DNA of 64,000 nt. Source: a virus. Lineage: Duplodnaviria; Caudoviricetes. Location of the stretch: positions 398 to 64,397 of IMG/VR virus record IMGVR_UViG_2524023245_000003; one strand, given 5' to 3'. The position numbers were made by a program, and so were the translations under genes. The notes below the pieces were generated by a model. It saw only the letters and a list, made by a program, of their open reading frames with translations, did no database searches and was not told the DNA's origin. Each line of letters starts with the position of its first letter. Position 1 is the first letter of the stretch. Positions 7,485-60,333 of this stretch are shown piece after piece.

Positions 7485-8084
7485 CTAGTCCAGGTAGTAG
7501 GTCCAGCCGTCCAGGCACACCCAGGTCGGCGGAGACGTCGATTCGAAAGTGCGCAGGCTGCGGGTGCCGGTGGCGATGGCCAGGCGCACCACGGCCGGGG
7601 AGACCGTCGAGTTCCGCACCCCCGCGTAGCCGATCTCGCCGGTGCTGGTGGGCACGATGTCGGTGGGGAGGGTCGCGAGTGTCGCGCCGCTGGCGATGGT
7701 GCCGCTGGTCGGCTCGATACGGCCGCGCAGCGTGATGCGTCGGCCCTCCCGCAGGTATGCGGCGGTGTAGCCGTGGCCGGGCCACCGGTAGCCGGCGGCG
7801 AGGGTGAGGGGCGTCCAGGCGCCGGGGCCGTCGTCGGTGGGGCCGATCGCGAGCCAACTGCCGGACCCGTTCCGGGTGATGACGATGATGTCGCCGACGG
7901 CGGGCAGGGGGTAGGTGGGCAGGCGGCGGGCGCGGATCTGCCCGCAGTCCACCGTCCCGTCCGACCCCACGGCGGTGACCGTGTTGAGGTGCCAGTCGGC
8001 GCCGCGCACCGCCGGGGTGCTCTCGCCCTGGTGGCGGGCCGCGCCCGCGATGGCTGACGCCAGAGAAGCGCTGCTGCTGGTCAT
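7485..8084 (-). CDS. Minor tail protein
   Basis: OB-like N-terminus (PAVGDIIVI), C-terminal ATLP...WVCLDG domain; ATGA overlap. Confidence 0.8.
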   Translation of the reverse strand: MTSSSASLASAIAGAARHQGESTPAVRGADWHLNTVTAVGSDGTVDCGQIRARRLPTYPLPAVGDIIVITRNGSGSWLAIGPTDDGPGAWTPLTLAAGYRWPGHGYTAAYLREGRRITLRGRIEPTSGTIASGATLATLPTDIVPTSTGEIGYAGVRNSTVSPAVVRLAIATGTRSLRTFESTSPPTWVCLDGWTYYLD

Positions 8085-14400: not shown

Positions 14401-16708
14401 ACGTGCCCCTCGCCGACGGAGTCAGCTTCGCCAACGCGGCCTGGTACTTGGCCTGCGCGGTCGCCGCAGCGTCCGCACCGCCAGCGGTCCGGATCTGCGC
14501 CGAGCGGACCTGCGCCTCCGCAGCGGCGATACTGTCCGCCGCCGACTGCCGTGCCGCCGCCACCTGCCGCTGAGCCCGCGCCACCGACTGCGCGGCCTGC
14601 TGCTCCGCCGCACCCACCGCCGCCTGAGCGCGCGCCACCGAGCGCGCACCCTCCTCCTGAACGCGAGCCACATTCCGCTGCGCGACCGCGACCCTCTCCT
14701 GCGCCGAAGCGATACCCCGCGAATTCGCGACCTGCTGGCGGGCCATCTCCTCCCGCGCCTTGGACAGGCCCGCCTCCTGGGAGGCGACACCGCGCTGCGC
14801 CGCGACCAGCCGCTCCTGCGCGGACCGCACCCGCTCCGTGCCGTCCACGCCGGACTTGTCGGCGGCGCGCTTGTCCGCGGCGAGGCGCTTCGTGTCCAAC
14901 TGCTGCTCGCGCAGGCGTTGGACCGCCTGGTCATACGCCAGCTGCGCGCGCTGCTGCTCCAGCAGCGTCGCCTTAGACCCGGCCACCTGCGTGGCGCGCA
15001 GCCGCGCCTGCGCCTCCTGCACGGACAGCGTCGCGTCCCGCTCGGACAGCTGCGCACCGGCGAGCCGAAGCGACAGATCCTGAAGCTCCGCCGCCGCATC
15101 CCGGCGGGCCTGAGTCAGATCCGTCTGCGCCTGCCGGGCCGTGCGCTGCGCATCCGCCAAGGACTGCTCGGCAGCCTGCACCCGCTCGCCCGCCGCGCGC
15201 ATCCGGTCCGCGGCCTGCTCGTAGGCGCCGGCGAGTGCCTGCCGGGCCGTGCGCACCTGCGCGGCAGCCGCCGTGCTGGCCTGCGCCGCCTGCCGCACCG
15301 CATCGGCCACGCCCTGCTCGGCCTGGGCAACACGCGCCGCACCATCCCGAACGGCGTCCGCGACACCCCGCTGCGCCTGGCCGATCTGCTGCCCCGCATT
15401 ACGGTGCGCCAGCGCCAGCTGCCGCTGCGCACCGGACTGCTGGAGTGCCTGCCGGGCCGCCGCCGCAGCAGCCTGCCCACCCTGGCCAGTCGACTGCGTG
15501 GCGGCGTCCTGCGCGGCCTTCTGCGCTTCCAGGGCCCCGGCGATGTCCTTGATGGCCGGGGCTGCGGCGAGTCCGAGCGCGCCGACGCCCGCCGCTGCGG
15601 CGGTTGCCGCTGCGGCGATCGACCCGATCCCGGCGGCCAGCACCGGTATGGCCGGGATGGCGGCGAGCCCGGCCACCGCGATGGCGAGCTGGAGCACCGC
15701 GCTCCGCGCCTGCCTCGTGGAGACGTTGATCTCGGCTCGCTGCCCGTCAAGGGCGGACACCATCGCCTGCACGGTGGCCAGCTGCGCCATCGCCGCAGCG
15801 GCATCCACACGCACAGCGACGTCCGCGTTAGACGCGGACAGCCGCTCCAGGCGGGCCTGGAGGTCGGCGACCTTGGCGGCGGCTGTTGCGGCGTCCATGT
15901 CGACGCCGATACGGACATCCCGCAGCGCGGTGAGCTGGCTGCGCAGGGATGCGATCTCCGCCTGCGCAGGGCTGGTGTCGGCCCCGATGTTGATGTTGGG
16001 GAGGGCAGCCTCGGCCTGCTGCACCGCGACGCGGAGCCGCTGCCCGAAGGTGCCATCGGTCTCGACCCGCACCCGCGCGGGATCAGCGGAGATGCGGTCG
16101 ATCTCCGCCCGGACGGCAGCCAGCTCAGCGCGGGCCCGCGCAGTGTCCGCGCGGACCGTCACGTCCGGGTGTGACGCGCCGAGCCTGCGCAGCTGCTCCT
16201 CGATCTCCTCGATCTCGGCGCGGGCCTCCGCCGCGTCCAAGTCGACGCCGATCGTGCGGCCGGACAGCGTCTCCATGCGGGCACGGAGCGCCTGAATATC
16301 AGCGTCAGCTTCCGAGGTGTCGGCGCCGATCGTGACGTCCGGCAAAGACCTGAAAGCCGCCTCGATCCGGGCACGGGCGGACCGCGCGAACGCCCCGCCG
16401 GTCTGCTCGCCCTGCCGGGTCGCCGCAGGACGGGCAGTGCGCCCGCCCTGGGTGATGCCGTCCCGCAGAGCGCCCCGGATCTCCGCCGTGATGCGGGCGG
16501 CGATCTGCGAGCCGATCTGCTGCCCGATCTGGAGGCCGATACCGCCGACCTCGGACCGCATCGCCGGGCCGAAGCTGCGGCCGGCGGCGTTGCCCGCGTC
16601 CTCCCCGGCGCGGGTCGCCGCCGGAACCAGCGCGCCCCGCAGCTGGGTGTAGATGCCGCGGGTGTTCGGGACGACATCGACCTCGACGCTGCCGACACTG
16701 ATCGCCAC
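11438..16708 (-). CDS. Tape measure protein with C-terminal M23 peptidase and lytic transglycosylase domains
   Basis: 1756 aa Ala-rich helical, TM region, HTGLD...YAHL...PHLHLE (M23), ESGGNPRA...GLIQ (SLT). Confidence 0.95.
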   Translation of the reverse strand: MAISVGSVEVDVVPNTRGIYTQLRGALVPAATRAGEDAGNAAGRSFGPAMRSEVGGIGLQIGQQIGSQIAARITAEIRGALRDGITQGGRTARPAATRQGEQTGGAFARSARARIEAAFRSLPDVTIGADTSEADADIQALRARMETLSGRTIGVDLDAAEARAEIEEIEEQLRRLGASHPDVTVRADTARARAELAAVRAEIDRISADPARVRVETDGTFGQRLRVAVQQAEAALPNINIGADTSPAQAEIASLRSQLTALRDVRIGVDMDAATAAAKVADLQARLERLSASNADVAVRVDAAAAMAQLATVQAMVSALDGQRAEINVSTRQARSAVLQLAIAVAGLAAIPAIPVLAAGIGSIAAAATAAAAGVGALGLAAAPAIKDIAGALEAQKAAQDAATQSTGQGGQAAAAAARQALQQSGAQRQLALAHRNAGQQIGQAQRGVADAVRDGAARVAQAEQGVADAVRQAAQASTAAAAQVRTARQALAGAYEQAADRMRAAGERVQAAEQSLADAQRTARQAQTDLTQARRDAAAELQDLSLRLAGAQLSERDATLSVQEAQARLRATQVAGSKATLLEQQRAQLAYDQAVQRLREQQLDTKRLAADKRAADKSGVDGTERVRSAQERLVAAQRGVASQEAGLSKAREEMARQQVANSRGIASAQERVAVAQRNVARVQEEGARSVARAQAAVGAAEQQAAQSVARAQRQVAAARQSAADSIAAAEAQVRSAQIRTAGGADAAATAQAKYQAALAKLTPSARGTFDAFVSLRSAFTAWSRALQPAVMPIFTRALNGMRNSLPGLTPFVLEAAKAIGELQDKASRGFKSAGWAEFKKDLSGSVRPAVVGLGVALGNIGKGVGGIIAAFLPHMDSISARMQSITGGFADWGTNLKGSPEFEGFLSYSAEMGPQLAATFGDIASAVLEVSRALSPLSGPLLQILGGVARAIASISESLPWLLQLLYLVWVATKLWTLSLVLLNLVINMNPIVRIISLIVLLVASVVYAYKNFGWFRTAVQAAWDGITAATSWAWNSVLKPALDAIWAALQFVGGIAVWLWRKAIWPAFQGIATVAKWLLMIVAVLVVGPIVVAFQLLAAVGRWLWQKVLAPVFRGIAAVASWLWQKIIRPQVNAWIAILRFLAAVGKWLWQKALAPAFRGIGSVASWLWNKVIRPVFNWISDKAKWLYRKGIKPQFDAIKTAVGKVKDAFVTAKDGIGKAWNKLKTLTKKPIAWIIDMVYNKGIRGLWNAAAKVLPIKPIKDKFKVDGWATGGPVYGAGTETSDSIPAALSHNEHVWTAKEVRGAGGHAAMESMRAAARRSGTAYAKGGAVAPTGAHGGPIDWTAGVVKGAAKGAVSKVKGAVGKLKDLALGGVYAGVKAAAKPIRDLIGKIPGGKSGFGKLATALPKGLLDEALNAIKGSEDSQMGSGQWAKPVDAKYGTRFGARGAMWSSGRHTGLDFPAPTGKTVRAVDKGSVAAARNGGPYGQHIAIDHGGGLSSLYAHLSSMALKSGAVDRGQTIGKVGASGNTSGPHLHLEARRHGKPTDPMPYLTGGGGGSGKGAGRWRGVASAVLRELGIYSKYNLDAVLRTIAKESGGNPRAINLWDSNADRGTPSKGLIQTIDPTFNAYAGRYKSRGAYDPYANIYAGIRYARSRYGKGWAARMSRPGGYDSGGYLPPGLSTVYNGTGRPEPVLTRQQMSALTGAAARGSDGAASLGDLHVAVYVGDREITDIVRTEVRTSEQQLATALRAGRR

Positions 16709-16736
16709 GAGAGGACCCCCTCTCGCGGTGGAGCGC

Positions 16737-17195
16737 CTATGCGGCGCCCCCGTTGATCAGCCGGAACAGCACCTCGGCGGCGCCGTCGGTCATGGCGGCC
16801 GTCTTCTTCTTCGGCGGCTTCGCACCCGGCCGACGGATCGGCTCCGGCGCTTCCGGCCGCTGGCTCTTCTTCTCGGTGTTGACGCAGATCAGCACGTACT
16901 CCAGGCGGGCGATCCGGTCAGCCATGAGCGCGAGGAGCTGCTCGGTCTGCGACCATCGGCCCCGCTCGGGCTCACCCTGCTCGGACTGCTCCGCCAACTC
17001 CTCGTCCGACATCGAGTTGCGGAGCGCGGTCATCGTGTGGGACTCGGGCGGCAGATGCTGGATCAGCACCCGCAGCCTGCGCCACGTCATGAGCCCTCGG
17101 TGCACATCAAGGACGTCGTGCCCGCGGTCGAGGAGGTCGGCCTCTACCGCCTCCGCGTGCTCCTCGAGGACCCGCGCGGTCCACTGGATTTCCCC
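16737..17195 (-). CDS. Tail assembly chaperone, -1 frameshift extension (gpGT-like)
   Basis: Slip at GGGGAAA opens EIQWTARVLEEHAEAVEADLL...WRRLRVLIQHLPPES, running to stop at 16737. Confidence 0.85.
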   Translation of the reverse strand, partial: GEIQWTARVLEEHAEAVEADLLDRGHDVLDVHRGLMTWRRLRVLIQHLPPESHTMTALRNSMSDEELAEQSEQGEPERGRWSQTEQLLALMADRIARLEYVLICVNTEKKSQRPEAPEPIRRPGAKPPKKKTAAMTDGAAEVLFRLINGGAA

Positions 17196-17500
17196 AGGGC
17201 CTCCCCGGACTTCTGCGCGACGTCCCCGGCAAACTTGCCGAACGAGTCCATGTCAGGGTCGAGATCCTCGAAGATCTCGTAGTCGTCCTCATGCAGGCTG
17301 GCCCGCATGAACGCGTCGATGTCGCCGTTGTTGAGTGCGCGGATTGTCGAGGAGCGCCAGCGGCCGGACGGGACGCAGCGGACATCCTTGGTGACCCCGT
17401 CATACCCCGCCAGCGGCACGGTGACGTACTCGACATCCTCCGCCTCCGCCTCCTGCGCTTCGGCGGCGGCTTCGGCGAGGGCTTTCTTCGTGGTGGGCAT
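17144..17500 (-). CDS. Tail assembly chaperone (gpG-like); alternative in-frame upstream start at 17680
   Basis: AGGAGG RBS, ends ALGKSSG...; between major tail and tape measure genes. Confidence 0.88.
   Translation of the reverse strand: MPTTKKALAEAAAEAQEAEAEDVEYVTVPLAGYDGVTKDVRCVPSGRWRSSTIRALNNGDIDAFMRASLHEDDYEIFEDLDPDMDSFGKFAGDVAQKSGEALGKSSGPRGSSRSTRRR
17189..17195 (-). other. Programmed -1 ribosomal frameshift slippery site G GGG AAA
   Basis: CTG GGG AAA TCC in chaperone frame; -1 frame is open into the downstream ORF. Confidence 0.85.
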
Positions 17501-17760
17501 GGCGCGGGCCTCCTGATGGCATTCGCATGAGCAGTAGAGGATGTAGTCGGAAGTGGTGAGCCAGGTACAGCCGCGGTGCAGGCCGTCGGCGCACATGCCG
17601 CTGAGGGCCTTGTGGCTTTGGAATTGAGTGCTGTTGATCAGGTCCGCGAGGAAGTCCTCGTCGGACATGTGTCTGCCCATGGCGCGGGCCTCCTTGTGGC
17701 GCGGGACTTGGTTGTGCAGGTGGCGGGCCGGGCCCGCGCCAGGGACGGCCCGCCACCCGT

Positions 17761-18345
17761 TCAGGACGCCGGTTCGGCGGGCGTGGCAGGTACGGAGTCG
17801 GCGTGGTAGACGGTGTTTCCGGCCTCGTCGGGGTAGGCGGTGACTGTGATCTCGTAGCCGGACATTTCGTCCTGCTTGAACGTCACGTCGGACCGGTCGG
17901 ACACCTCGCCCTGGGGGACGTAGAAGCCCTTCGCGGTCTCCCCGTCCATCACCAGGAACCACCAGGCGCGGCGGTCCGGGACCGGCGATGCGGTCTCCGC
18001 GAAGCTCGTGAGGCCGCCGACGGGCTCCAGGTCAGCGGCGGGCAGCCGGTACATGACGGACTGGACGGCGACGCGGGAGGTCTCCCACAGGGTCACCCCG
18101 AACGTCCGCACCGACTTGGTGATCATCGTGCGGAAAGGAGAGGTCAGACCCCACGGAGTGAACTCCTCGGAGTCCTCATCGAAGCCATAGACGAGCCCGT
18201 CGTCCGACGTCGCGCCGAGCGGCTCCCACGGAGTCAGAGGTTGAGTGAGCGGCGTCGCGGGCGCGGCCGTTCCGGTGGGCGCGACCCATCCGCCGCCGTT
18301 CGCGCCGACGACCGTAAGGTCCGAGGCGCGCGTGATGTTGACCAT
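17761..18345 (-). CDS. Major tail (tube) protein
   Basis: WEPLGATSDDGL...TPWG...YEITVTAYPD; synteny. Confidence 0.92.
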   Translation of the reverse strand: MVNITRASDLTVVGANGGGWVAPTGTAAPATPLTQPLTPWEPLGATSDDGLVYGFDEDSEEFTPWGLTSPFRTMITKSVRTFGVTLWETSRVAVQSVMYRLPAADLEPVGGLTSFAETASPVPDRRAWWFLVMDGETAKGFYVPQGEVSDRSDVTFKQDEMSGYEITVTAYPDEAGNTVYHADSVPATPAEPAS

Positions 18346-18420
18346 GAGGTCTCCCAACATGCAGAAACCCCAGCTCAGGGCTGGGGTTCAGGGGTTACAG
18401 GACCGGCGCGGGCCTGCCGG

Positions 18421-18819
18421 TCAGGAGACCGGGTGTGCGTAGATCTGATACGTCGCGCCCACACGGCGGAGGGCGGTGTTCTCGTAGGGCCTGGAGCTGG
18501 GGGCGGAGATGGTGACCACGCGGCCGACGACCGCCGTGTCCGTTGCGGAGCCCCGGAGGTCGGTGAGGAGCCAGCCGCGAACCTGCGCGGCCAGCGCGAC
18601 CGCCTCGCCGCGGGTCGCGGCGTACACGTCGACGTCGACCAGCGCGGCATCGAGTCGCAGCCCGTCATCGGCGCCGCCCACCCGCTCCACCTGAATCGTC
18701 GGCAGCTCGTCCACCAGGTTGTTGTCCAGCTCGTCACGGACCACGACCGACAGACCAGCGCGGGCCTGGAGCCAGCCGATCAGCAGCACCTCGACATCCA
18801 CCGAGCCGACGGCCGCCAT
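18421..18819 (-). CDS. Tail terminator protein
   Basis: LPTIQVERVGG...VDVDVYA motif; synteny. Confidence 0.85.
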   Translation of the reverse strand: MAAVGSVDVEVLLIGWLQARAGLSVVVRDELDNNLVDELPTIQVERVGGADDGLRLDAALVDVDVYAATRGEAVALAAQVRGWLLTDLRGSATDTAVVGRVVTISAPSSRPYENTALRRVGATYQIYAHPVS

Positions 18820-19151
18820 CAGTTCCGGCCCCCCACCTGGGCGGCGCGCAGCAGCACATGATGCGCAGGGACGCGCTCCGTGCCGTACTCCACCCACCGG
18901 GCGTACGCCGCCGAGTTGGACACGTACGCGACCGCCCGGTCCCGGTTCCTGCCGCCCCGCCGCGTCGACGTGACGTGCCAGGAGGACCGGTACAGGCCCG
19001 GGTGCGGGTCCCACGCCGCCGTACCCGTCGGCGAGGTAGACACCGCGACACCTCGAATGACGTGGGCGCGGCGCAGCATCTCCGCCTCCACCATCGGAGA
19101 CCGCAGCAGCTGGCCGACGCCTCTGCTCGACATCCTGAACTTCGCTGGCAT
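18819..19151 (-). CDS. HK97 gp10-like neck protein
   Basis: GLYRSSW...YARWVEYGT...HHVLLRAA. Confidence 0.85.
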   Translation of the reverse strand: MPAKFRMSSRGVGQLLRSPMVEAEMLRRAHVIRGVAVSTSPTGTAAWDPHPGLYRSSWHVTSTRRGGRNRDRAVAYVSNSAAYARWVEYGTERVPAHHVLLRAAQVGGRN

Positions 19152-19160
19152 AGCCGCCTC

Positions 19161-19517
19161 CTATCCGGTGATCCGGTCTGCGGCGAACTCCACCGGGGCG
19201 CCGGTGCCGGTGAACGGGCTGCGGAACCAGTTGCCGGGCTCGCCGGTGATCTCGCAGACTTCGCCGCGGACACGCACCTGGTCGGTGGTGAGCCAGTCCC
19301 GTCGATGCGGGTCATAGACGGTCCAGCCGACGATGACGGTGTCCCGCGCCTGCTGGTCCTCGCCCCCAGGTGTGGGTGTCTCGTCCACCCGCGGGGCAAC
19401 CACGCAGCCCGGCATGTCCGTCTCGATCAGCGGCCCGGGGATCGGCTGGCCGCGCGGGTCCCGGCCCGGTGACGGCCCGCGGCGTAGCCGTACCACCGTC
19501 TCGCCATGGGCGATCAC
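19161..19517 (-). CDS. Head-to-tail stopper
   Basis: DPRGQP...TDQVRVRG...GEPGNW.SPFTG; GTGA overlap. Confidence 0.85.
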   Translation of the reverse strand: MIAHGETVVRLRRGPSPGRDPRGQPIPGPLIETDMPGCVVAPRVDETPTPGGEDQQARDTVIVGWTVYDPHRRDWLTTDQVRVRGEVCEITGEPGNWFRSPFTGTGAPVEFAADRITG

Positions 19518-20134
19518 AGCGCTCTCACCTGAGTGGTCCCCGCAGCGCGCCGATAGCCTCCCGCGGTGAGCTGCGCACGGTCCTCGCCGGTCATCGCCAC
19601 GGCGGTTCCGGCTCCGGAGCCGTCCGTGCGGTAGGAGTAGGGGCCCATCGTCTCGCCGGTGACGCTGCCCGCCACGGTCGGCGCGGTCAGGGTGCGCAGC
19701 ACCATGCGGCACACGACTGCCAGGACGTCCGCCGGGGCGGTCGCCTGGCCGTGGGAGTACGTCACCTGGTAGGTATCCGGTAGCGGGCCGCTCCAGTTCA
19801 GGGGCCACGACCCGGACGGTCCTGCGCACGTCAGGTCGACCTTGTCGCGGCCGTCCCACACCCAGCCGGACAGCGCGCCCACCGTGCCCCCGTCCGGGCC
19901 CACCGCGGCGAGGGAGACGACGGCGGTCACCGGGCGCTGCGGAAGGCGCAGCACCGCACCCACCGGGCGCAGCACGATCACATCGTCCGCCACCGCGGTG
20001 AACTGCTGCCGGGTGTAGCCGCGCACCAGTGCGCTGGCGTCGGCCAGGAGTGCGTCCGCCCGAGCGGTCTCCTCTAGCGTGAGGTCCCGTCCGAGCCGGG
20101 CCTCCAGGTCAGTCGGGGTTGCGAGAGGTTCCAC
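19514..20134 (-). CDS. Head-to-tail adaptor
   Basis: LATPTDLEARLGR...LLADASALVR...LPQRPV...ETMGPYSY. Confidence 0.88.
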   Translation of the reverse strand: MEPLATPTDLEARLGRDLTLEETARADALLADASALVRGYTRQQFTAVADDVIVLRPVGAVLRLPQRPVTAVVSLAAVGPDGGTVGALSGWVWDGRDKVDLTCAGPSGSWPLNWSGPLPDTYQVTYSHGQATAPADVLAVVCRMVLRTLTAPTVAGSVTGETMGPYSYRTDGSGAGTAVAMTGEDRAQLTAGGYRRAAGTTQVRAL

Positions 20135-30174: not shown

Positions 30175-30330
30175 TCAGCTTCCGTTGCCGACGCTGCCGA
30201 GCATGACCGTCTTGGTCAGCTCGAAGGCTTGGGGTTCGGTGAATCCGGCGGCGATGTAGGCGGTGTACAGCTCGTGGAGCTGGGCTGCCGCTGCGGCGAG
30301 TTCGGTGATGGGGTCTTCGGGTTCACCCAT
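30175..30330 (-). CDS. Small helical hypothetical protein
   Basis: MGEPEDPITELAAAAAQLHELYTAYIAAGFTEPQAFEL; preceded by the start-associated motif. Confidence 0.75.
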   Translation of the reverse strand: MGEPEDPITELAAAAAQLHELYTAYIAAGFTEPQAFELTKTVMLGSVGNGS

Positions 30331-30348
30331 GGGCGCGGGCCTTCCTGC

Positions 30349-30702
30349 TCAGTCGTCGTGTTCGGCGCGGATGGACACGCGGCGGGCGAAGAGGGTGAGG
30401 GTGACGCGCACCAGCTCGTCGGATCGGGTGCTCATCTCGTGCACGATGACGGGGTCGTCGGCTGATGCGGCGAGCGACTGTCCGTTGATGCGTACGTCGT
30501 TGGGTGCGATGACGCTGCCGCCGGTGGTGTCGTCTGTGGCCCGGCCCTTCTCGATGATCTCGATGACGGCGCCCCGCGGTGGCGTGCTGTCGTCGGCGCG
30601 CCAGGTGCAGGTGCACGGCGCGCCGTTGATCAGGAGGCGGTCGCAGTCGGGCTTGGGGCACTTGTCCGTGCTGTGCACGGGGTCGCCCATGCGGTAGGCC
30701 AT
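30349..30702 (-). CDS. Hypothetical protein
   Basis: Start-associated motif; PNDVRING...VTLTLFARRV. Confidence 0.75.
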   Translation of the reverse strand: MAYRMGDPVHSTDKCPKPDCDRLLINGAPCTCTWRADDSTPPRGAVIEIIEKGRATDDTTGGSVIAPNDVRINGQSLAASADDPVIVHEMSTRSDELVRVTLTLFARRVSIRAEHDD

Positions 30703-30717
30703 GGCGTGGGCCTTTCG

Positions 30718-31029
30718 TCAGAGGAGTCCGGGGTGTTGTTCGGGGGGCCGTCGTCGTCCTGGTGGGGGGTTGGCTGCTCGTGCGGCGTTGCCTTCGGCGC
30801 TGGACTTGTACCGGTGGCAGTGGGGGGGCACTCGGTCGTGGGCCCAGTCGAGGTTGTCGAGGCTGTGATCGTCGCCCGGCTGCTTGTGGTCGAGGTAGTC
30901 CCCGCCCGGGTCTCCGCACAGGTGGCAGATGTGATCGGGATTGCGGGCGTGTGCTGCGGGGCGGATACGGGTGCGCCAGTCTGCCGGGAGCCGGGATCGG
31001 CGCGTGCTGCCCTGCCAGCCGCCGCTCAT
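30718..31029 (-). CDS. HNH endonuclease (terminase-associated type)
   Basis: RLPADW...CHLC...DH...DDHSLDNL...CH..KSSAEG. Confidence 0.85.
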   Translation of the reverse strand: MSGGWQGSTRRSRLPADWRTRIRPAAHARNPDHICHLCGDPGGDYLDHKQPGDDHSLDNLDWAHDRVPPHCHRYKSSAEGNAARAANPPPGRRRPPEQHPGLL

Positions 31030-31337
31030 GGCGCTGGCCTTCCGTCAGTGTCGCCTCGGTACTTGGCGAGGGCTTGGCTCACGCGTTCCTCGCCCCAGTC
31101 GCTGGAGTCCCACCACTCGACTGCCTTCCACACCTCGGTGAGCCGTTCTAGGCGTGCGGTTGCTCGCACTTCCCACTGCCGCAGCAGGAGGAGGAGTCCT
31201 TCGGTTTCGCGTGCAGCGTCTTGTGCGTAGCCGAGTCCGGCGAGCCGGGTGGCCATCTCTTCGAGGTCGTAGCGGTGGGCTTGGAGGTCTTCAAGGTCTT
31301 GGACCGCGCAGAGGTAGTTGTACGAGCCGCCGCTCAT
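31026..31337 (-). CDS. Hypothetical protein
   Basis: MSGGSYNYL...VWKAVEWWDSSD phage family pattern; ATGA coupling. Confidence 0.75.
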   Translation of the reverse strand: MSGGSYNYLCAVQDLEDLQAHRYDLEEMATRLAGLGYAQDAARETEGLLLLLRQWEVRATARLERLTEVWKAVEWWDSSDWGEERVSQALAKYRGDTDGRPAP

Positions 31338-31558
31338 GGTGCGATCAGCGGCCCCGTGTTGACCTTGCAGTCCGGGTGGTGCGGTACGTCCCCAGTTTGA
31401 AGTGCTCGCCACGGTTCGCATGTGCAGGTGACGGCCGGATCAATCCGGTCGGCGATGTGGTCGTAGGTGCATCGGGGGCAGCCGAGGCCGCCATTGCACA
31501 TGTAGTGCTCTGGCGCCGCCTGGCGGATCGCTTCGGCGACGACGCGCAGTTCAGTCAC
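31334..31558 (-). CDS. Small Cys/His-rich hypothetical protein
   Basis: GTGA/ATGA coupling on both sides. Confidence 0.6.
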   Translation of the reverse strand: MTELRVVAEAIRQAAPEHYMCNGGLGCPRCTYDHIADRIDPAVTCTCEPWRALQTGDVPHHPDCKVNTGPLIAP

Positions 31559-31860
31559 AGCGTGGCCTCCGAATGCTCGGCGGCGGGCCATCGGATCGGC
31601 TGCCCATCGGCGTCGACCGCCACCTCGTTGGCGGGGATGGCGATGGTCTCTTCGAAGACGAGGACGCAGCGGGCGCCGATCTGCTCGGCCACGGACGGGC
31701 GGCTCAGCAGTCGCTGTTCGCCTTCCACCGGGATGAACGGCCCTTCGGTCATGCCGAGGGCGGCGGCGATGGTTTCGTCGGCTTGGTCGACGATGAGCAC
31801 GAACGGCGGCCGAGCGTCGTCGGCGCCTTCGGGCAGTTCGAGGATCTGGAGGCGGGCCAT
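31555..31860 (-). CDS. Hypothetical protein
   Basis: MARLQILELP...PFVLIVDQ...VLVFEETI; coupled starts. Confidence 0.75.
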   Translation of the reverse strand: MARLQILELPEGADDARPPFVLIVDQADETIAAALGMTEGPFIPVEGEQRLLSRPSVAEQIGARCVLVFEETIAIPANEVAVDADGQPIRWPAAEHSEATL

Positions 31861-32081
31861 CAGGTCACCGCCTCAGCTTCGTCCTGGCGCTCGGCCCGGA
31901 GGATGTCGCCGATCTCCAACAGGGCCTGCGCGACGGCGACGGTGGCGATGGCCTGCGCCTTGGCGGCGCGCGCTTGAATCTCGGCGCTGGCCACCTGGCC
32001 CTGCGGCATTGCGTTGAGGTCTTCGGCGGCCTGCCCGAGAGTGCGGCTGGCGAGTTCGCGGTAGCTGGGTACGGCGGCCAT
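31860..32081 (-). CDS. Small helical hypothetical protein
   Basis: TGATG coupling on both sides. Confidence 0.7.
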   Translation of the reverse strand: MAAVPSYRELASRTLGQAAEDLNAMPQGQVASAEIQARAAKAQAIATVAVAQALLEIGDILRAERQDEAEAVT

Positions 32082-32269
32082 CAGTCGGCCACCTTCTCGT
32101 CGCCCGGCATGCGGACGATGCTGAGGACGTTGCTGTCGGGCACGAGCGCGACGGTGCCGTCATCGTCGTCGACGAACCTGTAGTGGTCCTCGGACGCTTC
32201 GTGCTGGACGGATGCGGCGGCGACTTGCTCTTGGTCACCACTGGTGTAGGCGATCGTGTAGCGGGCCAT
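32081..32269 (-). CDS. Small hypothetical protein
   Basis: Start-associated motif. Confidence 0.75.
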   Translation of the reverse strand: MARYTIAYTSGDQEQVAAASVQHEASEDHYRFVDDDDGTVALVPDSNVLSIVRMPGDEKVAD

Positions 32270-32284
32270 GGCGCGGGCCTTTCG

Positions 32285-32524
32285 TCAGTCGTCGTCTTCG
32301 TCGGTGAGGGCGTAGCCGGAGTTCTCGACGGCTTGCGCGGCGGTGATCATGCCGAGGCCGGTGATCCAGTCGAGGGATTCGGAGCGGCCCTTGGTGATCG
32401 ATACGCTGCCGTCGGCTTTGAGGGTCTTGATGATGACGATGGCGTCGAGAGGCATGTCGTCGCCGTCGATGTCTACGGTGACGCCGAGGGTGTCGAGGAT
32501 CTGCCCGACGGACTGGTAGGCCAT
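32285..32524 (-). CDS. Small acidic hypothetical protein
   Basis: GGAGG RBS. Confidence 0.75.
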   Translation of the reverse strand: MAYQSVGQILDTLGVTVDIDGDDMPLDAIVIIKTLKADGSVSITKGRSESLDWITGLGMITAAQAVENSGYALTDEDDD

Positions 32525-32641
32525 GGCGGCTCACCTCCGGCTAGCACGGACGTCGGGAAGTGGGTGGTGGCCCGCCCGCCGCCTCGGTTCGGGCGGGCCA
32601 CTCGCGCCGCGCGCCGCTGGTGGGGCCAGGGCGGGCGCGTC

Positions 32642-32830
32642 TCAGTCGTCGTCGGGTGCGCGTTCGGTGTCGGAGGCGAGCGCGAACCCGATGCCGGGCT
32701 TCGATGCAGGCTCGGGTGCGGCGTCGAGGAGGCGGCGGGCGGTGCCTTCTGCCGCAGCGAGCTTCTTCCGGGACTTGCCCTTGATGCGGACGTGGACCTC
32801 GCGGTCGCCGGAGGTGACAGAGATGCGCAT
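32642..32830 (-). CDS. Small hypothetical protein
   Basis: Co-directional, ends PGIGF..DTERA. Confidence 0.65.
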   Translation of the reverse strand: MRISVTSGDREVHVRIKGKSRKKLAAAEGTARRLLDAAPEPASKPGIGFALASDTERAPDDD

Positions 32831-32835
32831 GCCGG

Positions 32836-33150
32836 TCAGGCGGGGTCGTACGTGGCGGCGAACACGTCCGGCTTGCAGGGGTAGAACCTGCCGGGCTGCT
32901 TCTCGGGGATGATCCAGTCGCCGTGACGGGCAACCGCGAGTTCACCGTGGACGGTCCGGACATTCATGGCGATGAAGTTCGGACCATCTTCACCGCAGGT
33001 GTCGGACGCCTCGCTGGCGCTGATCTCACGCGCACCACCGGGGTTGGCGTCCTTGAAGGCGTCGCCGAGGAACTCGCACACCTCGCTCCAGGTAGTCCAG
33101 CGGAGCTGCACGGCGTCGATCTCTACGGGGCGCTTGCGGTAGCGGGCCAT
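32836..33150 (-). CDS. Conserved phage protein (RKRPVEIDAVQ...GDWII...YPCKPDVF family)
   Basis: Characteristic motifs; start-associated motif. Confidence 0.85.
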   Translation of the reverse strand: MARYRKRPVEIDAVQLRWTTWSEVCEFLGDAFKDANPGGAREISASEASDTCGEDGPNFIAMNVRTVHGELAVARHGDWIIPEKQPGRFYPCKPDVFAATYDPA

Positions 33151-33248
33151 GGCGCGGGCCTTCCTGTCGGCAGAGGTTGGGCCGTGCAGGGCGGGGCCAG
33201 CAGCACCCTTGCTTGTGGACGTCCCGCCCTGCGCGGGGTACTGGGGGG

Positions 33249-53279: not shown

Positions 53280-53497
53280 GGGATGTCCTTCCGGTGGGTG
53301 CAGGTGGCCGCGTGGGTGCGGCGGATGGTGGTGACGAAGGCGGCCACTGCGTCCCCGCTGGCCGAGTCCGCCCAGCCGCAGCGCAAGCAGAGGTAGTCGG
53401 CGGCGGGGTACCGCACCCAGCTGGCGCCGCCGCGGGACTGCTGGCCGCAGTCGACCCGCAGCCACGCCGTGACGGTCACGGCACCCCGCCGCGTCAC
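53276..53497 (-). CDS. Small Zn-binding protein
   Basis: ADYLCLRC...H...C; GTGA coupling. Confidence 0.65.
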   Translation of the reverse strand: MTRRGAVTVTAWLRVDCGQQSRGGASWVRYPAADYLCLRCGWADSASGDAVAAFVTTIRRTHAATCTHRKDIP

Positions 53498-53772
53498 GCG
53501 GCGGCCCTGGTTTCGGCGCGGCGGGTGCGCCGGTAGAGCAGGGAGCGCTCGTCCTCCGTGAGGCCGCCGCGTACGCCCCACCTCGACTCGGCGCGCTGAC
53601 CGCCCTCGTCCCGCATCGCCTCGGCGAGGCAGGCGGCGCGGACACGGATCGGGCAGGCCGCGCACACTTCGCGGGCCTCCCGGATACCGGATGCGTCGGC
53701 GGGCGAGGGGTACATCGCGTCCGGGTCGATGTCCGGCCAGGCGCAGCGCTCCTCAGCGCGCCAGGCGGTCAT
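53494..53772 (-). CDS. WhiB-family transcription factor
   Basis: C...CAACP...C...WGVRGGLTEDER. Confidence 0.92.
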   Translation of the reverse strand: MTAWRAEERCAWPDIDPDAMYPSPADASGIREAREVCAACPIRVRAACLAEAMRDEGGQRAESRWGVRGGLTEDERSLLYRRTRRAETRAAA

Positions 53773-55969: not shown

Positions 55970-56583
55970 GTCGTCACCTCGCCCGGCCCGCGGGTGACCG
56001 CGTCGTACACGTCGCGGGCCCAGCGGGCGTCACCCATCGCGGTGTGCGCCACACCCCAGCCCGGCGGCTCGACACCCACCGCGCGGGACACGCCGTGCGA
56101 GGAGTACGGCACAGCCGGCGCCGGTTTCCTGCCGGGGTCCTGGGCGCCATCGCGGGCGCCGTGCATGTACCCGGCCGCCAGCGTCGTCACGTCGACCGTC
56201 CGGTAGTGCCAGGGCGGCTGCATGCCGCTGGCGCGCAGGATCTTGGCGAGGAACGCAGCGTCGAAAGCGGGATTCGAGCCGATCAGGATCGCGTCCTCCA
56301 GCGCGAGGCGGATCTCACCGGCGAGTTCGTACGGCCCCAGCGCGCCAGGGGGCGAGCACGTCATGTCCGCAGCCGGGTAGGGGCCCTGGACGGCGTGCCG
56401 CTGGTAGTAGCCGCCGATGGTCAGGGCTTCGGGCTGGGCGAAGTGCAGCGGCACGCGGGCCTGCCACAGGTACTCGCGCTCGGTGCCGTCCGCTTCGCGG
56501 CGGATGACGGCGATCTCCCACGCGTCGTGCAGGCGCGGGTCCAGGCCGGTGGTCTCGGTGTCGGTGAAGGCGAGCGCGGTCAC
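55966..56583 (-). CDS. DEDD 3'-5' exonuclease (DnaQ-like)
   Basis: DTETTGL, GSNPAFD, HTAMGDA. Confidence 0.92.
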   Translation of the reverse strand: MTALAFTDTETTGLDPRLHDAWEIAVIRREADGTEREYLWQARVPLHFAQPEALTIGGYYQRHAVQGPYPAADMTCSPPGALGPYELAGEIRLALEDAILIGSNPAFDAAFLAKILRASGMQPPWHYRTVDVTTLAAGYMHGARDGAQDPGRKPAPAVPYSSHGVSRAVGVEPPGWGVAHTAMGDARWARDVYDAVTRGPGEVTT

Positions 56584-59506: not shown

Positions 59507-60333
59507 GACGCACCGCCCGTCGTCTCGTCGCGCGCGGCCTGGTCCTCGGCAGCGCGCTGCCGGGCGAGCGTCGGGCAGGACGGGCACGACTCGCAGCACG
59601 GCCCGCAGTCCTCCGGGTCACAGCAGCCGTCCGCCCGGTGCAGGTGACAGCACACGGCCGCGCCCTCGCCCAGCTCGTACGGCACCGGCCCGGCCAGGTC
59701 GGCGCGGAGTGCGGCGGCCCGCTCCGGGTCCAGCTCCAGCACGTACGGCCCGCCGGACGGGCCGGACAGCAGCACCGTCACCGAGTCGTCGTCGCCCCAC
59801 TCGATGTCCTGCGGCGACCAGCGCAGCTCCAGCGGCGGCACGTCTCCGGTGTCCTGCTCGGCGTCGTCGGCCATGCCGTACAGCGCCTGGGCTGCCTGCG
59901 CGGCAGCCCACTCGCGGTCCTCGGCCAGGTCACCGCCCCTGGAGCGGAGTTCCTCGGCTACCTCACCGACCGCAGTGCCAGCCTCGCGCAGCACCTCGGC
60001 GCGGCGGGGGCGGGCGGCCAGCTCGGCGCGCAGCCGGTCGATCTCGGCGAGCAGCTCCGGGACGTCCTCGTGCGTCTCGGTGCCCCGCGCCAGCGCTGCG
60101 AACACCCGCACGTACGGGTATACGGGGTGGCCCGGCAGCAACGCGCGGCCCCGCTCCTCGATCGCGGCAGCGACCTGCTCCCGCGTATCGCGCTCCAGCG
60201 CGGCGGCACCCTCCGGTGTCTGGTGCATTCCGGCCGCGTCGACCGCGAACGCGATGCCCATCGGCGTCCGATCCTGCGCCAGCGCCCGGTGGATCACGCC
60301 TGCCAGCGCGTTCAGCGCCCTCGCGGTACTCAC
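59503..60333 (-). CDS. Hypothetical protein
   Basis: DVPELLAEIDRLRAEL segment, Cys-rich C-terminus; coupled. Confidence 0.7.
   Translation of the reverse strand: MSTARALNALAGVIHRALAQDRTPMGIAFAVDAAGMHQTPEGAAALERDTREQVAAAIEERGRALLPGHPVYPYVRVFAALARGTETHEDVPELLAEIDRLRAELAARPRRAEVLREAGTAVGEVAEELRSRGGDLAEDREWAAAQAAQALYGMADDAEQDTGDVPPLELRWSPQDIEWGDDDSVTVLLSGPSGGPYVLELDPERAAALRADLAGPVPYELGEGAAVCCHLHRADGCCDPEDCGPCCESCPSCPTLARQRAAEDQAARDETTGGAS

Follow-up and report, generated by a model that had tools for sequence, protein, structure and literature searches.

A candidate pseudoknot-forming RNA element beside the major tail protein gene of Streptomyces prophages and other actinobacteriophages

Described systems and the tail gene locus

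The start-associated sequences of Cluster K mycobacteriophages (SAS) and of Cluster EF Microbacterium phages (ESAS) are, in those sections of the reports that treat the motifs, conserved asymmetric motifs that include or abut the Shine-Dalgarno (SD) sequence a few bases before the ATGs of several genes; they lie in one orientation, with a single opposite copy, and their function is given as unknown, binding of RNA or of a protein having been considered by the authors (PMC3203893, PMC7302621). According to the same sections, SAS accompany only non-structural genes of the right arm, at 11-19 per genome, and the inverted repeats of ESAS were judged not supportive of RNA pairing (PMC3203893, PMC7302621). 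In the present analysis, the lone reverse SAS copy of Anaya, Adephagia and CrimD proved to lie in a conserved hairpin, at its apical loop. The tail element described here resembles SAS and ESAS in having an unusually conserved, asymmetric motif that includes or abuts the SD sequence, is start-linked and lies in one orientation, with a single antisense copy; as in these three Cluster K phages, that copy is in a hairpin loop. Unlike those of SAS, its conserved copies stand on either side of the major tail protein (MTP) gene, and site 1 among them is away from any start; the motif itself, GGCCCGCGCC, is unrelated to the GGGAUAGGAGCCC given for Cluster K in the sections named. Unlike the ESAS inverted repeats, as there described, the hairpin of the tail element covaries.

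The rpmI-rplT (L35-L20) operon of E. coli has a pseudoknot, formed by a hairpin loop and its single partner, a distant stretch of the mRNA, that controls a nearby ribosome-binding site (RBS), with L20 binding as the repressor. The arrangement proposed here may likewise be a pseudoknot between a loop and a distant site near an RBS, although two or three partners would compete and no protein is implicated. In the 'Min Jou' interaction of phage MS2, the downstream start region is paired to an upstream-cistron sequence inside the coat ORF, and translating ribosomes open the pairing. The downstream start region of the tail element is similarly complementary to sequence of the upstream cistron, which may link expression of the two genes, but the masking sequence would lie in a loop after the stop codon rather than inside the ORF. 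Hairpins are common after MTP genes and, like the terminators and 3′ stabiliser hairpins of highly expressed phage structural genes, the present one is a GC-rich stem directly 3′ of the gene for the most abundant tail protein; it differs from them in having no U-tract in the window and in its long, conserved loop, which is complementary to flanking repeats. A full-text literature search found no description of the tail-gene element, which is also not mentioned in the part of the main text of the paper on phage Samy that the search covered (PMC11302927).

The window, that is, the whole stretch of 64,000 nucleotides analysed, is a Streptomyces prophage in which the element lies on the minus strand, the mRNA strand. 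Its only DNA similarity to isolated phages is to Gordonia phage Archimedes, over 43 nt within the MTP gene. The features referred to below are as follows.

16737-17500, minus strand: tail assembly chaperone gene; the G frame extends to 17144, and the T part, in another frame, covers 17105-16737
17498-17513, minus strand: second identical 16-mer, GGAGGCCCGCGCCAUG, at the conserved chaperone start (AUG 17500-17498)
17501-17680, minus strand: Cys-rich ORF of 60 aa with no stop codon, an insertion that separates the element from the chaperone gene
17680-17695, minus strand: SD sequence AAGGAGG (17695-17689) overlapping site 2, GGCCCGCGCCA (17690-17680), with AUG at 17680-17678
17697-17705, minus strand: site 1, CCCGCGCCA, a 9-nt complement of the loop that overlaps no RBS
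17717-17759, minus strand: hairpin S1, 14 bp, with core arms 17757-17746 and 17730-17719, beginning 1-3 nt past the MTP stop codon
17731-17741, minus strand: anti-site, UGGCGCGGGCC, the 3′ part of the 15-nt loop (17745-17731), flush with the 3′ arm
17761-18360, minus strand: MTP gene, with the start of the longest ORF at 18360 and the stop TGA at 17763-17761
18367-18387, minus strand: T1, a terminator-like hairpin (ACCCCAGC/GCUGGGGU, then UUCUGC) just upstream of the MTP SD sequence
18403-18415, minus strand: site 0, AGGCCCGCGCCGG, a motif copy in the MTP 5′ untranslated region, complementary to the hairpin loop
18417-18432, minus strand: inverted repeat CCGGUCUCCUGACCGG, containing the stop codon of the preceding gene
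30329-33163, minus strand: five further copies of the start motif, (A/G)AAGGCC(C/A)(G/A)CGCC(C)ATG, at the starts of small genes upstream of the terminase gene

The 12-bp stem, the loop and the two downstream targets of the original prediction are all present on the mRNA strand, and the stem extends to 14 bp (17759-17717; -36.8 kcal/mol). S1 comprises the 5′ arm GGUGGCGGGCCG (17757-17746), the loop UCCCUGGCGCGGGCC (17745-17731) and the 3′ arm CGGCCCGCCACC (17730-17719), and within the anti-site GGCGCGGGCC is invariant or co-varies with the sites. Duplex energies of the loop are -29.6 kcal/mol with site 0, -20.5 kcal/mol with site 1 and -32.6 kcal/mol with site 2, the last base of which is the A of AUG.

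The element had been placed between the major tail and chaperone genes, and the hairpin does follow the MTP gene, which was identified by profile matches (Pfam Phage_TTP_17, 1.2e-19; phrog_117, 1.5e-40) and whose conserved start ATGGTCAAC, located by alignment of upstream regions, is 18345. The AUG at 17680, however, begins a 60-aa extension, and the conserved chaperone start is the AUG at 17500. The extension runs in frame and stop-free into the chaperone, and its final codons, QEARA-M, are the second motif copy: the 16-mer GGAGGCCCGCGCCATG at 17513-17498 is identical to the start motif at 17680 and gives a duplex energy of -27.5 kcal/mol with the loop. An insertion homologous to this ORF is also present in locus L098. 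The chaperone gene matches phrog_5813 (4.7e-19) and, weakly, phrog_10551 (0.0038), chaperone homologues occur in 42 related loci, and the downstream ORFs are chaperone homologues in all 43 of those examined.

When the 47 nt downstream were shuffled 20000 times by mononucleotide, a complement of at least 11 nt arose 13 times. Across the whole window, on both strands, two unrelated hairpins (53485 and 56380, plus strand) were found to have an 11-nt complement downstream, and about a dozen further hairpins one of 9-10 nt; the minimum free energy (MFE) z-score of the 131-nt region was only -1.48, for a nested fold in which ViennaRNA scores no pseudoknots. Because of the other 11-nt hairpins and this z-score, the single sequence is suggestive at most, and it is the comparative data that set the feature apart from chance. 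No Rfam match was obtained with cmscan for 16500-19000 on both strands at E up to 10.

The same numbers bear on the view that an ordinary terminator hairpin stands beside a repeated RBS cassette, the complementarity being a by-product of repeats spread by recombination at module borders. The ORF inserted between two identical 16-mers in the window, the similar insertion in L098 and the chance complements of 9-11 nt elsewhere in the window would all suit this view. Yet the stem is followed by UGCACAACCAAG, with no U-tract of the kind that defines an intrinsic terminator, and a promoter and terminator scan of 16000-20000 placed no site at 17717-17759. The compensatory changes and the recurrence of the layout with at least five unrelated motifs, both described below, are also contrary to it, and this explanation, already disfavoured by the comparative data, is extremely improbable.

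Conservation and covariation in related Streptomyces prophages

Among the related Streptomyces prophages (lineage A), a hairpin with an anti-site occurs in 199 of 201 parsed loci, corresponding to 160 of 162 distinct junction sequences. The stem begins 1-4 nt past the stop codon in 117 of the 160 distinct sequences, so that a terminating ribosome would open the hairpin. Some relatives, for example L015 and L017, have U-richer tails after the stem.

The original prediction had proposed covariation analysis as a check, and for the hairpin the outcome bears it out. Seven of the 13 pairs of S1 change on both sides, 97.4% of the cells are paired, and none of 500 shuffles reaches that value; over the whole 23-pair structure, 94.0% of the cells are paired, against 41-47% in slid controls. 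Alignment A1 contains 28 G·U cells in S1 and only three true non-pairs. In these comparisons S1 is an RNA helix of the sense strand. The complementarity of the loop to its targets is also conserved, with five compensated changes.

The predicted complementarity of the loop to two downstream sites is conserved and co-varying, with at least 8 contiguous pairs for site 1 in 122 of 133 haplotypes and for site 2 in 125 of the 129 haplotypes having a site 2 call. A third partner, site 0, had escaped the prediction; its complement is usually the longest of the three, reaching 12 contiguous pairs in 83 of 133 haplotypes and 10 or more in 122 of 133. Sites 1 and 2 are of near equal length in most lineages, which fits the need of a bistable design. 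A pure RBS switch would leave site 0 without a role, even though it usually complements the loop best.

Five independent loop changes are each mirrored in at least one site. In the T-clade (L013, L090, L091, L208 and L213), the loop reads GGCGCGGUCC and all three sites read GACCGCGCC. The loop GGCGCGAGG of L158 is matched by site 1, CCUCGCGCC, only; that of L047, GGCGCGGGA, by site 1 (UCCCGCGCC) and site 0 (UUCCGCGCC); that of L104, AGCGCGGG, by site 2 (CCCGCGCU); and that of L005 and L006, GCGCGGGGC, by site 1 (GCCCCGCGC). Uncompensated are a C·A mismatch in site 2 of L032 and, in L158, site 2 and site 0, which do not track the loop. The loop-site helices are nearly invariant in lineage A, most pairs never varying, and the covariation between loop and sites therefore rests on about five events. 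The T-clade event is a joint change of all copies, which is also expected under a co-evolving DNA-binding protein.

Motif sets that change together are a pattern of repressor/stoperator co-evolution. The motif copies might accordingly be DNA-level, stoperator-like operators for a lineage-specific phage DNA-binding protein, with the hairpin an unrelated terminator or stabiliser, and this would suit the change of all T-clade copies together, the differences in motif between lineages and the single orientation of the sense copies. Against it, the loop changes of L158, L047, L104 and L005/L006 are mirrored in single sites and not in all copies, and core positions 1-8 contain 20 G·U and two A·C cells among distinct anti-site/site pairs, a bias towards G·U that operators leave unaccounted for. 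The spacing between sites is also variable, at 17-24 nt in lineage A and 15-36 nt elsewhere.

The geometry of the loop bears on the same question. In 153 of the 160 distinct lineage-A sequences, the anti-site stops at -1 to +1 nt from the 3′ arm, and the 5′ part of the loop is at least 4 nt long in 157 of 160. A flush anti-site and a 5′ loop part of at least 4 nt are exactly what a pseudoknot needs, and a DNA site needs neither. A linker of at least about 8 nt leads to site 1, steric sufficiency being judged from A-form geometry, and the layout of the loop in other lineages is similar as judged by eye. The loop thus described fits an H-type pseudoknot, as do a covarying first helix (S1), a co-varying complementarity between loop and site that would form the second (S2), and the loop lengths and adjacency of S1 and S2.

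A U or C invariably precedes the anti-site and is opposite G in 101 of 116 cases. The original prediction had extended the site 2 pairing to the A of AUG, which holds in the window and is not conserved: comparison of haplotypes revealed no association between the base before the anti-site and the first base of the start codon, so that pairing to the A of AUG is ruled out as a conserved feature. Pairing of the motif with 16S rRNA beyond the SD sequence was also considered and set aside, no complementarity to the 3′ end of 16S rRNA being apparent.

The same layout in distant tail gene relatives

The layout is kept with different motifs in distant relatives of the MTP gene, namely in the Gordonia phages Wocket, Blino, Frizzle and Archimedes, in Streptomyces phage Samy, in Corynebacterium phage BFK20 and in two metagenomic lineages. 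In lineage B (L035-L044), GCCGUCAC faces GUGACGGC three times, and in L045 UGGUGGUC faces GACCACCA twice. Wocket and Blino have CCUGGCAGGUCCG against CGGACCUGCCAGG, GGACCUGCC and GGCCUGCC; Frizzle and Archimedes have AGCAGGUCAG against UGACCUGCU, CUGACCUGC and UGACCUGC; and Samy has UGCGCGGGUC against GACCCGCGCA, twice. BFK20, GRU1 and TinaLin have a single site, and in GRU1, TinaLin and Gsput1 only site 1 is found, with no site at the RBS. A complement of at least 8 nt between the loop and downstream sequence, with a shuffle P of at most 0.0125, is present in nine of 15 lineage representatives; the feature is missing in five of the 15 (Catfish, AbbeyMikolon, StAB, Kromp and r1t), and also in L034 and L133. 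By this comparison, the whole motif has been replaced in eight other lineages, with at least five unrelated motifs in use.

Wherever site 2 is present, it sits between the SD sequence and the start codon. All nine lineages have the inverted copy in the hairpin loop and flush against the 3′ arm, which operators for a DNA-binding protein do not explain. In Cluster A mycobacteriophages, stoperator-like sites number over 20 and are asymmetric sites spread across the genome in intergenic gaps. The copies around the tail gene are instead few and local. Wocket contains four exact sense copies and one near-exact one within 2 kb of the tail gene, and one antisense copy, with none elsewhere in its 49.8 kb, and three T-clade prophages (G001-G003) have three sense copies and one antisense copy around the MTP gene. 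Operators of this kind are very unlikely.

If the loop pairs as RNA, its main partner might still be site 0. A helix between the anti-site and site 0, stacked on S1 to give about 25 bp, would then bracket the MTP cistron as a device for mRNA processing or stability: either this bracket, or a pseudoknot of S1 with site 1, would shield the MTP message from exonucleases, or else cutting by a double-strand-specific RNase would uncouple the abundance of MTP mRNA from that of chaperone and tape-measure mRNA. The length of the site 0 complement in lineage A favours such a role, as do the 13 nt it reaches in Wocket, the 10 nt in both lineage B and Archimedes, its co-variation with the loop in the T-clade and L047, and the U or C that precedes the anti-site and usually opposes G. 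The lineages with site 1 only, which still keep the putative pseudoknot, and the structural operon of Wocket, where the only large gaps are those flanking the MTP gene, point the same way. Site 0 was not found, however, in L045, Samy (where only a degenerate copy inside T1 is seen), BFK20, GRU1 or TinaLin, and the exact placement of site 2 between SD sequence and start is left unexplained. A processing or stability device is rather unlikely.

Proposed control of tail protein synthesis

Long-tailed phages need hundreds of tube subunits per virion and far fewer chaperone and tape-measure molecules. The reading preferred here, given about an even chance, is that the late tail mRNA contains a conserved RNA element that acts in cis, competing pairings between loop and sites occluding or freeing the chaperone RBS; in broader terms, the element likely sets how much of each tail protein is made. 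In the proposed mechanism, a GC-rich hairpin of 12-16 bp right after the MTP stop codon would present an anti-site of 10-12 nt on the 3′ side of its loop. The anti-site would pair with one partner at once: site 0 in the MTP 5′ untranslated region, site 1 about 10-25 nt past the hairpin, or site 2 in the spacer between the SD sequence and the start of the chaperone gene. With site 1 or site 2 as partner, the product would be an H-type pseudoknot whose second helix is stacked on the hairpin. Because the site 2 helix would bury the end of the SD sequence and the spacer, translation of the chaperone gene, and of genes coupled to it, would be initiated less, and pairing with site 1 or site 0 would leave the chaperone RBS open. 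How strong the competing helices are relative to one another would then determine how much tube protein is made for a given amount of chaperone and tape-measure proteins. We infer formation of the helices in vivo, repression of translation when site 2 is paired, and a regulated or tuned equilibrium between the alternatives.

The two-state RBS switch originally envisaged agrees with two sites that are conserved, co-varying and nearly equal, but it does not extend to GRU1, TinaLin and Gsput1, which have no RBS site; the core or universal function therefore cannot be an RBS switch alone. Working as proposed, the element would be a compact, protein-free RNA device in which two or three targets compete for one loop, and at least five different sequences would mark its re-invention or retargeting across Streptomyces, Gordonia and Corynebacterium phages. 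It would also give a rationale for the two conspicuous intergenic gaps flanking the MTP gene, and it is a candidate new RNA family for annotation. Since the element is present in cultured, tractable phages (Wocket, Blino, Frizzle, Archimedes and Samy), the proposal is directly testable.

The start motif recurs in the window as predicted: the identical 16-mer at 17513-17498 is joined by near-copies before the ATGs at about 30330, 30700, 31027, 32267 and 33148, and one of the small genes so marked at 30-33 kb encodes an HNH endonuclease. The suggestion that the loop is antisense to these other copies is thus borne out as to their existence, but the copies are not conserved. Seven start-linked copies, all on the mRNA strand, face one antisense copy in the window, and in the T-clade relatives the start-linked motif occurs only at the chaperone gene: a search of G001-G003 for other starts with the variant motif returned none beyond the chaperone start. 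This argues against a conserved trans regulon, although one is possible in the lineage of the window.

Such a regulon would make the loop, on the abundant MTP mRNA or on a fragment derived from its 3′ part, a trans-acting antisense hub that seeds on motif-bearing RBSs for late shut-down, its targets being the genes at 30-33 kb and both chaperone starts of the window and gene 11 of Wocket. The seven-to-one ratio of copies would be in keeping with this, and gene 11 of Wocket starts with GGACCUGCCAUG; Cluster K offers a parallel, since in Anaya, Adephagia and CrimD the single reverse start-associated copy occupies the 10-nt apical loop of a long hairpin. The lack of conservation of the distant copies and the result for G001-G003 weigh against the hub, as does the fact that every universally conserved partner is in cis, no more than 0.8 kb away, and a hub of this kind is improbable.

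A wider proposal would treat the hairpin loop as the missing partner of start-associated sequences in general, actinobacteriophages commonly carrying one antisense loop on a stable hairpin that pairs with RBS-embedded motifs in cis and in trans. This generalisation is tentative and more doubtful than believable at present. Were it true, the tail element and the reverse SAS of Cluster K would be one principle, a small RNA-only translational regulon that times or balances expression, and a motif class with a function open since 2011 would be explained; for the unexplained mycobacteriophage start-associated sequences it would in any event be a concrete hypothesis.

Two further structures lie upstream of the MTP gene. 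The inverted repeat CCGGUCUCCUGACCGG is kept in most lineage-A loci, and its GGUCUCC is complementary to GGAGACC of the MTP SD region, a pairing that appears in the MFE structure of the window and is conserved. Long-range masking of the MTP SD sequence by this pairing was considered and rejected, and is mentioned as an aside only, because the pairing overlaps coding sequence and is uncompensated in L100 and L102. The terminator-like hairpin T1, just upstream of the same SD sequence, is conserved in an RNAalifold analysis of 46 upstream regions.

The hairpin and its setting in the window

The stretch downstream of the major tail protein (MTP) gene most probably encodes a selected sense-strand RNA hairpin whose loop has retained complementarity to two or three sites close by, a reading that we hold with high confidence from sequence comparison. 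The IMG/VR provirus concerned is 64.4 kb long with a G+C content of ~71%, and all relatives of the window are Streptomyces prophages. Its tail genes, all minus-strand, run in the order MTP, RNA element, tail assembly chaperone and tape-measure gene, and every string quoted in the original prediction is found there at its place.

Features of the tail-gene junction (minus strand, window positions)
18415-18403: site 0, AGGCCCGCGCCGG, upstream of the MTP gene
18360/18345-17761: MTP gene (Pfam Phage_TTP_17, phrog_117)
17757-17746: 5′ arm of the hairpin, GGUGGCGGGCCG
17745-17731: loop, UCCCUGGCGCGGGCC
17730-17719: 3′ arm, CGGCCCGCCACC
17705-17697: site 1, CCCGCGCCA
17695-17689: Shine-Dalgarno (SD) sequence, AAGGAGG
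17690-17680: site 2, GGCCCGCGCCA
17680-17678: start AUG
17513-17498: second identical 16-mer, GGAGGCCCGCGCCAUG
17105-16737: tail assembly chaperone, frameshifted T part
16708-11438: tape-measure gene

The hairpin does lie between the MTP and chaperone genes as predicted. The AUG at 17680, taken for the chaperone start, instead opens a 60-aa Cys-rich extension, which is in frame with the chaperone and joined to it with no intervening stop; the second 16-mer supplies the AUG of the conserved chaperone start (MPTTKK...). This stop-less Cys-rich module (40-60 aa, ...LYCSC(E/H)CHQEARA; 17501-17680, minus strand), in frame between the RNA element and the chaperone, ends in codons (QEARA-M) that are the start motif itself. 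A homologous module occurs downstream of the MTP gene in Streptomyces lavendofoliae (locus L098), and the two modules are fused to chaperones with differing N-termini. The module looks like a small mobile ORF between start-motif copies, and its insertion could yield long and short chaperone isoforms; a Pfam search with the 178-aa fusion of module and chaperone gave no match.

The full stem comprises 14 bp (-36.8 kcal/mol), and the loop duplexes amount to -20.5 kcal/mol with site 1 versus -32.6 kcal/mol with site 2; in the window, the first codons 3′ of the AUG also match the whole loop. An 11-nt complement was reached in 13 of 20000 shuffles. Taken by itself, however, the window sequence is only suggestive, because a chance control on both of its strands yielded two unrelated hairpins with 11-nt downstream complements and the nested MFE of the region has a z of only -1.48. 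The control hairpins (plus strand, 53485-53525 and 56380-56430) have stems of 10-11 bp and loop complements at most 40 nt downstream. An Rfam search of the element region, proposed with the original prediction, returned no matching family, and a terminator scan found no terminator at the hairpin.

Covariation and loop geometry in lineage A

Searches with the MTP and an MTP alignment retrieved 214 loci (L-numbers); 201, the window included, had enough downstream sequence, the 11 distant loci L035-L045 being left out of this count. The hairpin and its anti-site, the loop segment complementary to the sites, are present in 199 of the 201 loci (160 distinct sequences); the two exceptions are L034 and L133, the latter from Streptosporangium. 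Each of the 43 ORFs inspected downstream encodes a chaperone homologue, and the N-termini of these proteins vary.

In a MAFFT alignment of 43 distinct junctions, 7 of the 13 hairpin pairs changed on both sides, 97.4% of cells were paired, none of 500 shuffles was as good, and 28 G.U cells are compatible only with sense RNA, so that the predicted sense-strand structure is borne out. The 11 non-pairs in one column pair arose where MAFFT shifted the register of 12-bp stems. The whole 23-pair structure was 94.0% paired, versus 41-47% with the partner slid. The loop-site helices were 89.5% (site 1) and 96.0% (site 2) paired, variation in them being rare; in the larger set, five independent variants carry a loop change mirrored in one or more sites.

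Loop changes mirrored in the sites
L013, L090, L091, L208 and L213 (one clade): loop GGCGCGGUCC; GACCGCGCC in all sites
L158: loop GGCGCGAGG; site 1 CCUCGCGCC, sites 2 and 0 unchanged
L047: loop GGCGCGGGA; site 1 UCCCGCGCC and site 0 UUCCGCGCC
L104: loop AGCGCGGG; site 2 CCCGCGCU
L005/L006: loop GCGCGGGGC; site 1 GCCCCGCGC

Most changes on one side only are compatible with G.U pairing (20 G.U versus 2 A.C cells at core positions, distinct pairs), a skew that by itself carries little weight, the anti-site being rich in G. Site 2 of L032 has an uncompensated C.A mismatch.

The third partner, site 0, is found in nearly all lineage-A loci, the window's own family of junctions. It is flanked by an inverted repeat enclosing the preceding gene's stop codon and by a terminator-like hairpin (T1, 18387-18367) before the MTP SD, and is usually the longest complement, its contiguous pairs numbering 12 in 83 of the 133 haplotypes and 10 or more in 122. 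The base preceding the anti-site is always U or C, opposite G in 101 of 116 cases, and site 0 tracks the loop in the five-locus clade and L047.

T1 (minus strand) is conserved across lineage-A loci, has a U-rich tail and lies only ~10 nt 5′ of the MTP SD; it is a candidate attenuator or 5′ stabiliser. The T1 3′ arm of many relatives, GCGCGGGC, is similar to the anti-site and could therefore form an alternative duplex with site 0. The string GGUCUCC, located at the pre-MTP gene's stop codon (18417-18432, minus strand), is complementary to the MTP SD region GGAGACC (18348-18356, minus strand); the two are paired in the window MFE, enclosing site 0 and T1, and may couple translation through RBS masking. 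This pairing overlaps coding sequence and shows no compensation in L100 or L102.

Among the 160 distinct sequences, the stem is 12-16 bp long in 155 and begins 1-4 nt past the stop codon in 117, the anti-site ends at most one base from the 3′ arm in 153, and the 5′ part of the loop, which may accommodate hairpin insertions as long as 36 nt, has at least 4 nt in 157. By A-form geometry, a second helix of 9-11 bp in an H-type pseudoknot calls for an anti-site that directly abuts the 3′ arm and for no fewer than ~4 nt on the opposite side. The loop geometry thus appears to be a pseudoknot requirement, for which a double-stranded DNA site would have no need. With a typical pseudoknot penalty of ~+10 kcal/mol, the stem plus the site 2 duplex would, by rough addition, fall below the best nested fold (-48.4), and the pseudoknot with site 1 would about equal it.

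The same layout with other motifs

In distant MTP relatives, the layout is kept with unrelated motifs.

Anti-sites and sites in distant relatives
Lineage B (L035-L044, 63% G+C; stem GGGGUGGGUGG/CCACCCACCCC): anti-site GCCGUCAC; site 0 GUGACGGC upstream of MTP; site 1 GUGACGGC past the hairpin; site 2 GUGACGGC between AAAAGG and AUG
L045: anti-site UGGUGGUC; site 0 not found; site 1 GACCACCA; site 2 GACCACCA directly before AUG
Gordonia phages Wocket, Blino: anti-site CCUGGCAGGUCCG; site 0 CGGACCUGCCAGG (13 nt); site 1 GGACCUGCC; site 2 GGCCUGCC-AUG
Gordonia phages Frizzle, Archimedes: anti-site AGCAGGUCAG; site 0 UGACCUGCU(A), at the preceding stop codon; site 1 CUGACCUGC; site 2 UGACCUGC or AACCUGC before the start
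Streptomyces phage Samy: anti-site UGCGCGGGUC; site 0 only a degenerate copy within T1; site 1 GACCCGCGCA at -46; site 2 GACCCGCGCA at -10 of AUG
BFK20, GRU1, TinaLin, Gsput1: anti-site and site 1 present; site 0 not found; site 2 none clear

A downstream loop complement of at least 8 nt (shuffle P ≤0.0125) occurs in 9 of 15 lineage representatives, with a significant upstream match as well in four lineages; Catfish, AbbeyMikolon, StAB, Kromp and Lactococcus phage r1t have no loop complement. Across the complete genome of Wocket, sense copies of the motif are confined to 7598, 7887, 8823, 9615 and 9636 and the antisense motif to the loop; the copies form a local cluster rather than an operator set spread through the genome. 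That the motif copies are DNA-level sites is an explanation weakened by this local distribution, by variable spacing, by the site-specific compensations and by the embedding of the anti-site in a hairpin loop.

Wocket gene 11 begins, ~1.3 kb upstream of MTP, with GGACCUGCC-AUG (7598-7609), the same motif as the MTP-flanking sites, and the copy at 7887 lies inside gene 12. In lineage B (L035, L038, L044, ~760-830), a second hairpin, GGGGGUG...CACCCCC, follows the stop codon of an upstream gene ~1.7 kb before MTP and holds the GCCGUCAC string, partly in its stem. Ahead of the terminase gene in the window lie five small genes (30329-33163, minus strand) that open with TGAC-(G/A)(A/G)AAGGCCCGCGCC-ATGG directly after the previous stop codon; their products include an HNH endonuclease (phrog_333) and a protein of phrog_1810.

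Proposed competing pairings and known systems

Competition among the loop-site pairings would be the most economical mechanism, because site 2, where present, invariably occupies the spacer between SD and start codon of the chaperone gene and sites 1 and 2 are of near-equal length in most lineages (9-10 versus 10-11 in lineage A, 10/10 in Samy, 8/8 in lineage B and L045, 9/8 in the Gordonia phages). With the loop paired to site 2, the chaperone RBS would be masked; with the loop on site 1 or site 0 instead, it would stay accessible, the balance setting chaperone and downstream expression relative to MTP. A candidate toggle is the terminating ribosome, which would be forced to open the stem base in most lineage-A members. 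The core of the original prediction, RBS control by alternative pairing, is thus retained as partly supported, with site 0 added and pairing to the A of the AUG, for which no association was found, dropped.

From the lineages with site 1 alone it follows that the pseudoknot must be useful in its own right, for instance by serving as a 3′ cap or barrier, and a processing or stability device is therefore given real weight. Translational control at the RNA level by long-range or pseudoknot pairing, of which the element would be a new variant, is partly supported, and the element is directly testable in cultured phages.

The full-text literature searched held no description of the element. The closest described system is the start-associated sequence (SAS) of Cluster K mycobacteriophages; its function is stated as unknown and a single copy in opposite orientation is noted (PMC3203893), and a similar motif is mentioned for Cluster EF Microbacterium phages (PMC7302621). 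We found that this lone reverse copy in Anaya (L235, record position 59870), Adephagia (L242, 58682) and CrimD (L243, 58835) makes up the 10-nt loop (CCUCCUAUCC) at the apex of a long predicted hairpin, much as the tail-element anti-site lies in a hairpin loop, and the stem has compensating differences between Anaya and Adephagia/CrimD. This position motivates a bolder, rather unlikely reading, in which the hairpin loop would be an antisense partner of start-associated sequences in the tail-gene element and Cluster K alike. The Cluster K hairpin is located in a large intergenic gap close to the right genome end, and its loop contains an anti-SD-like CCUCC.
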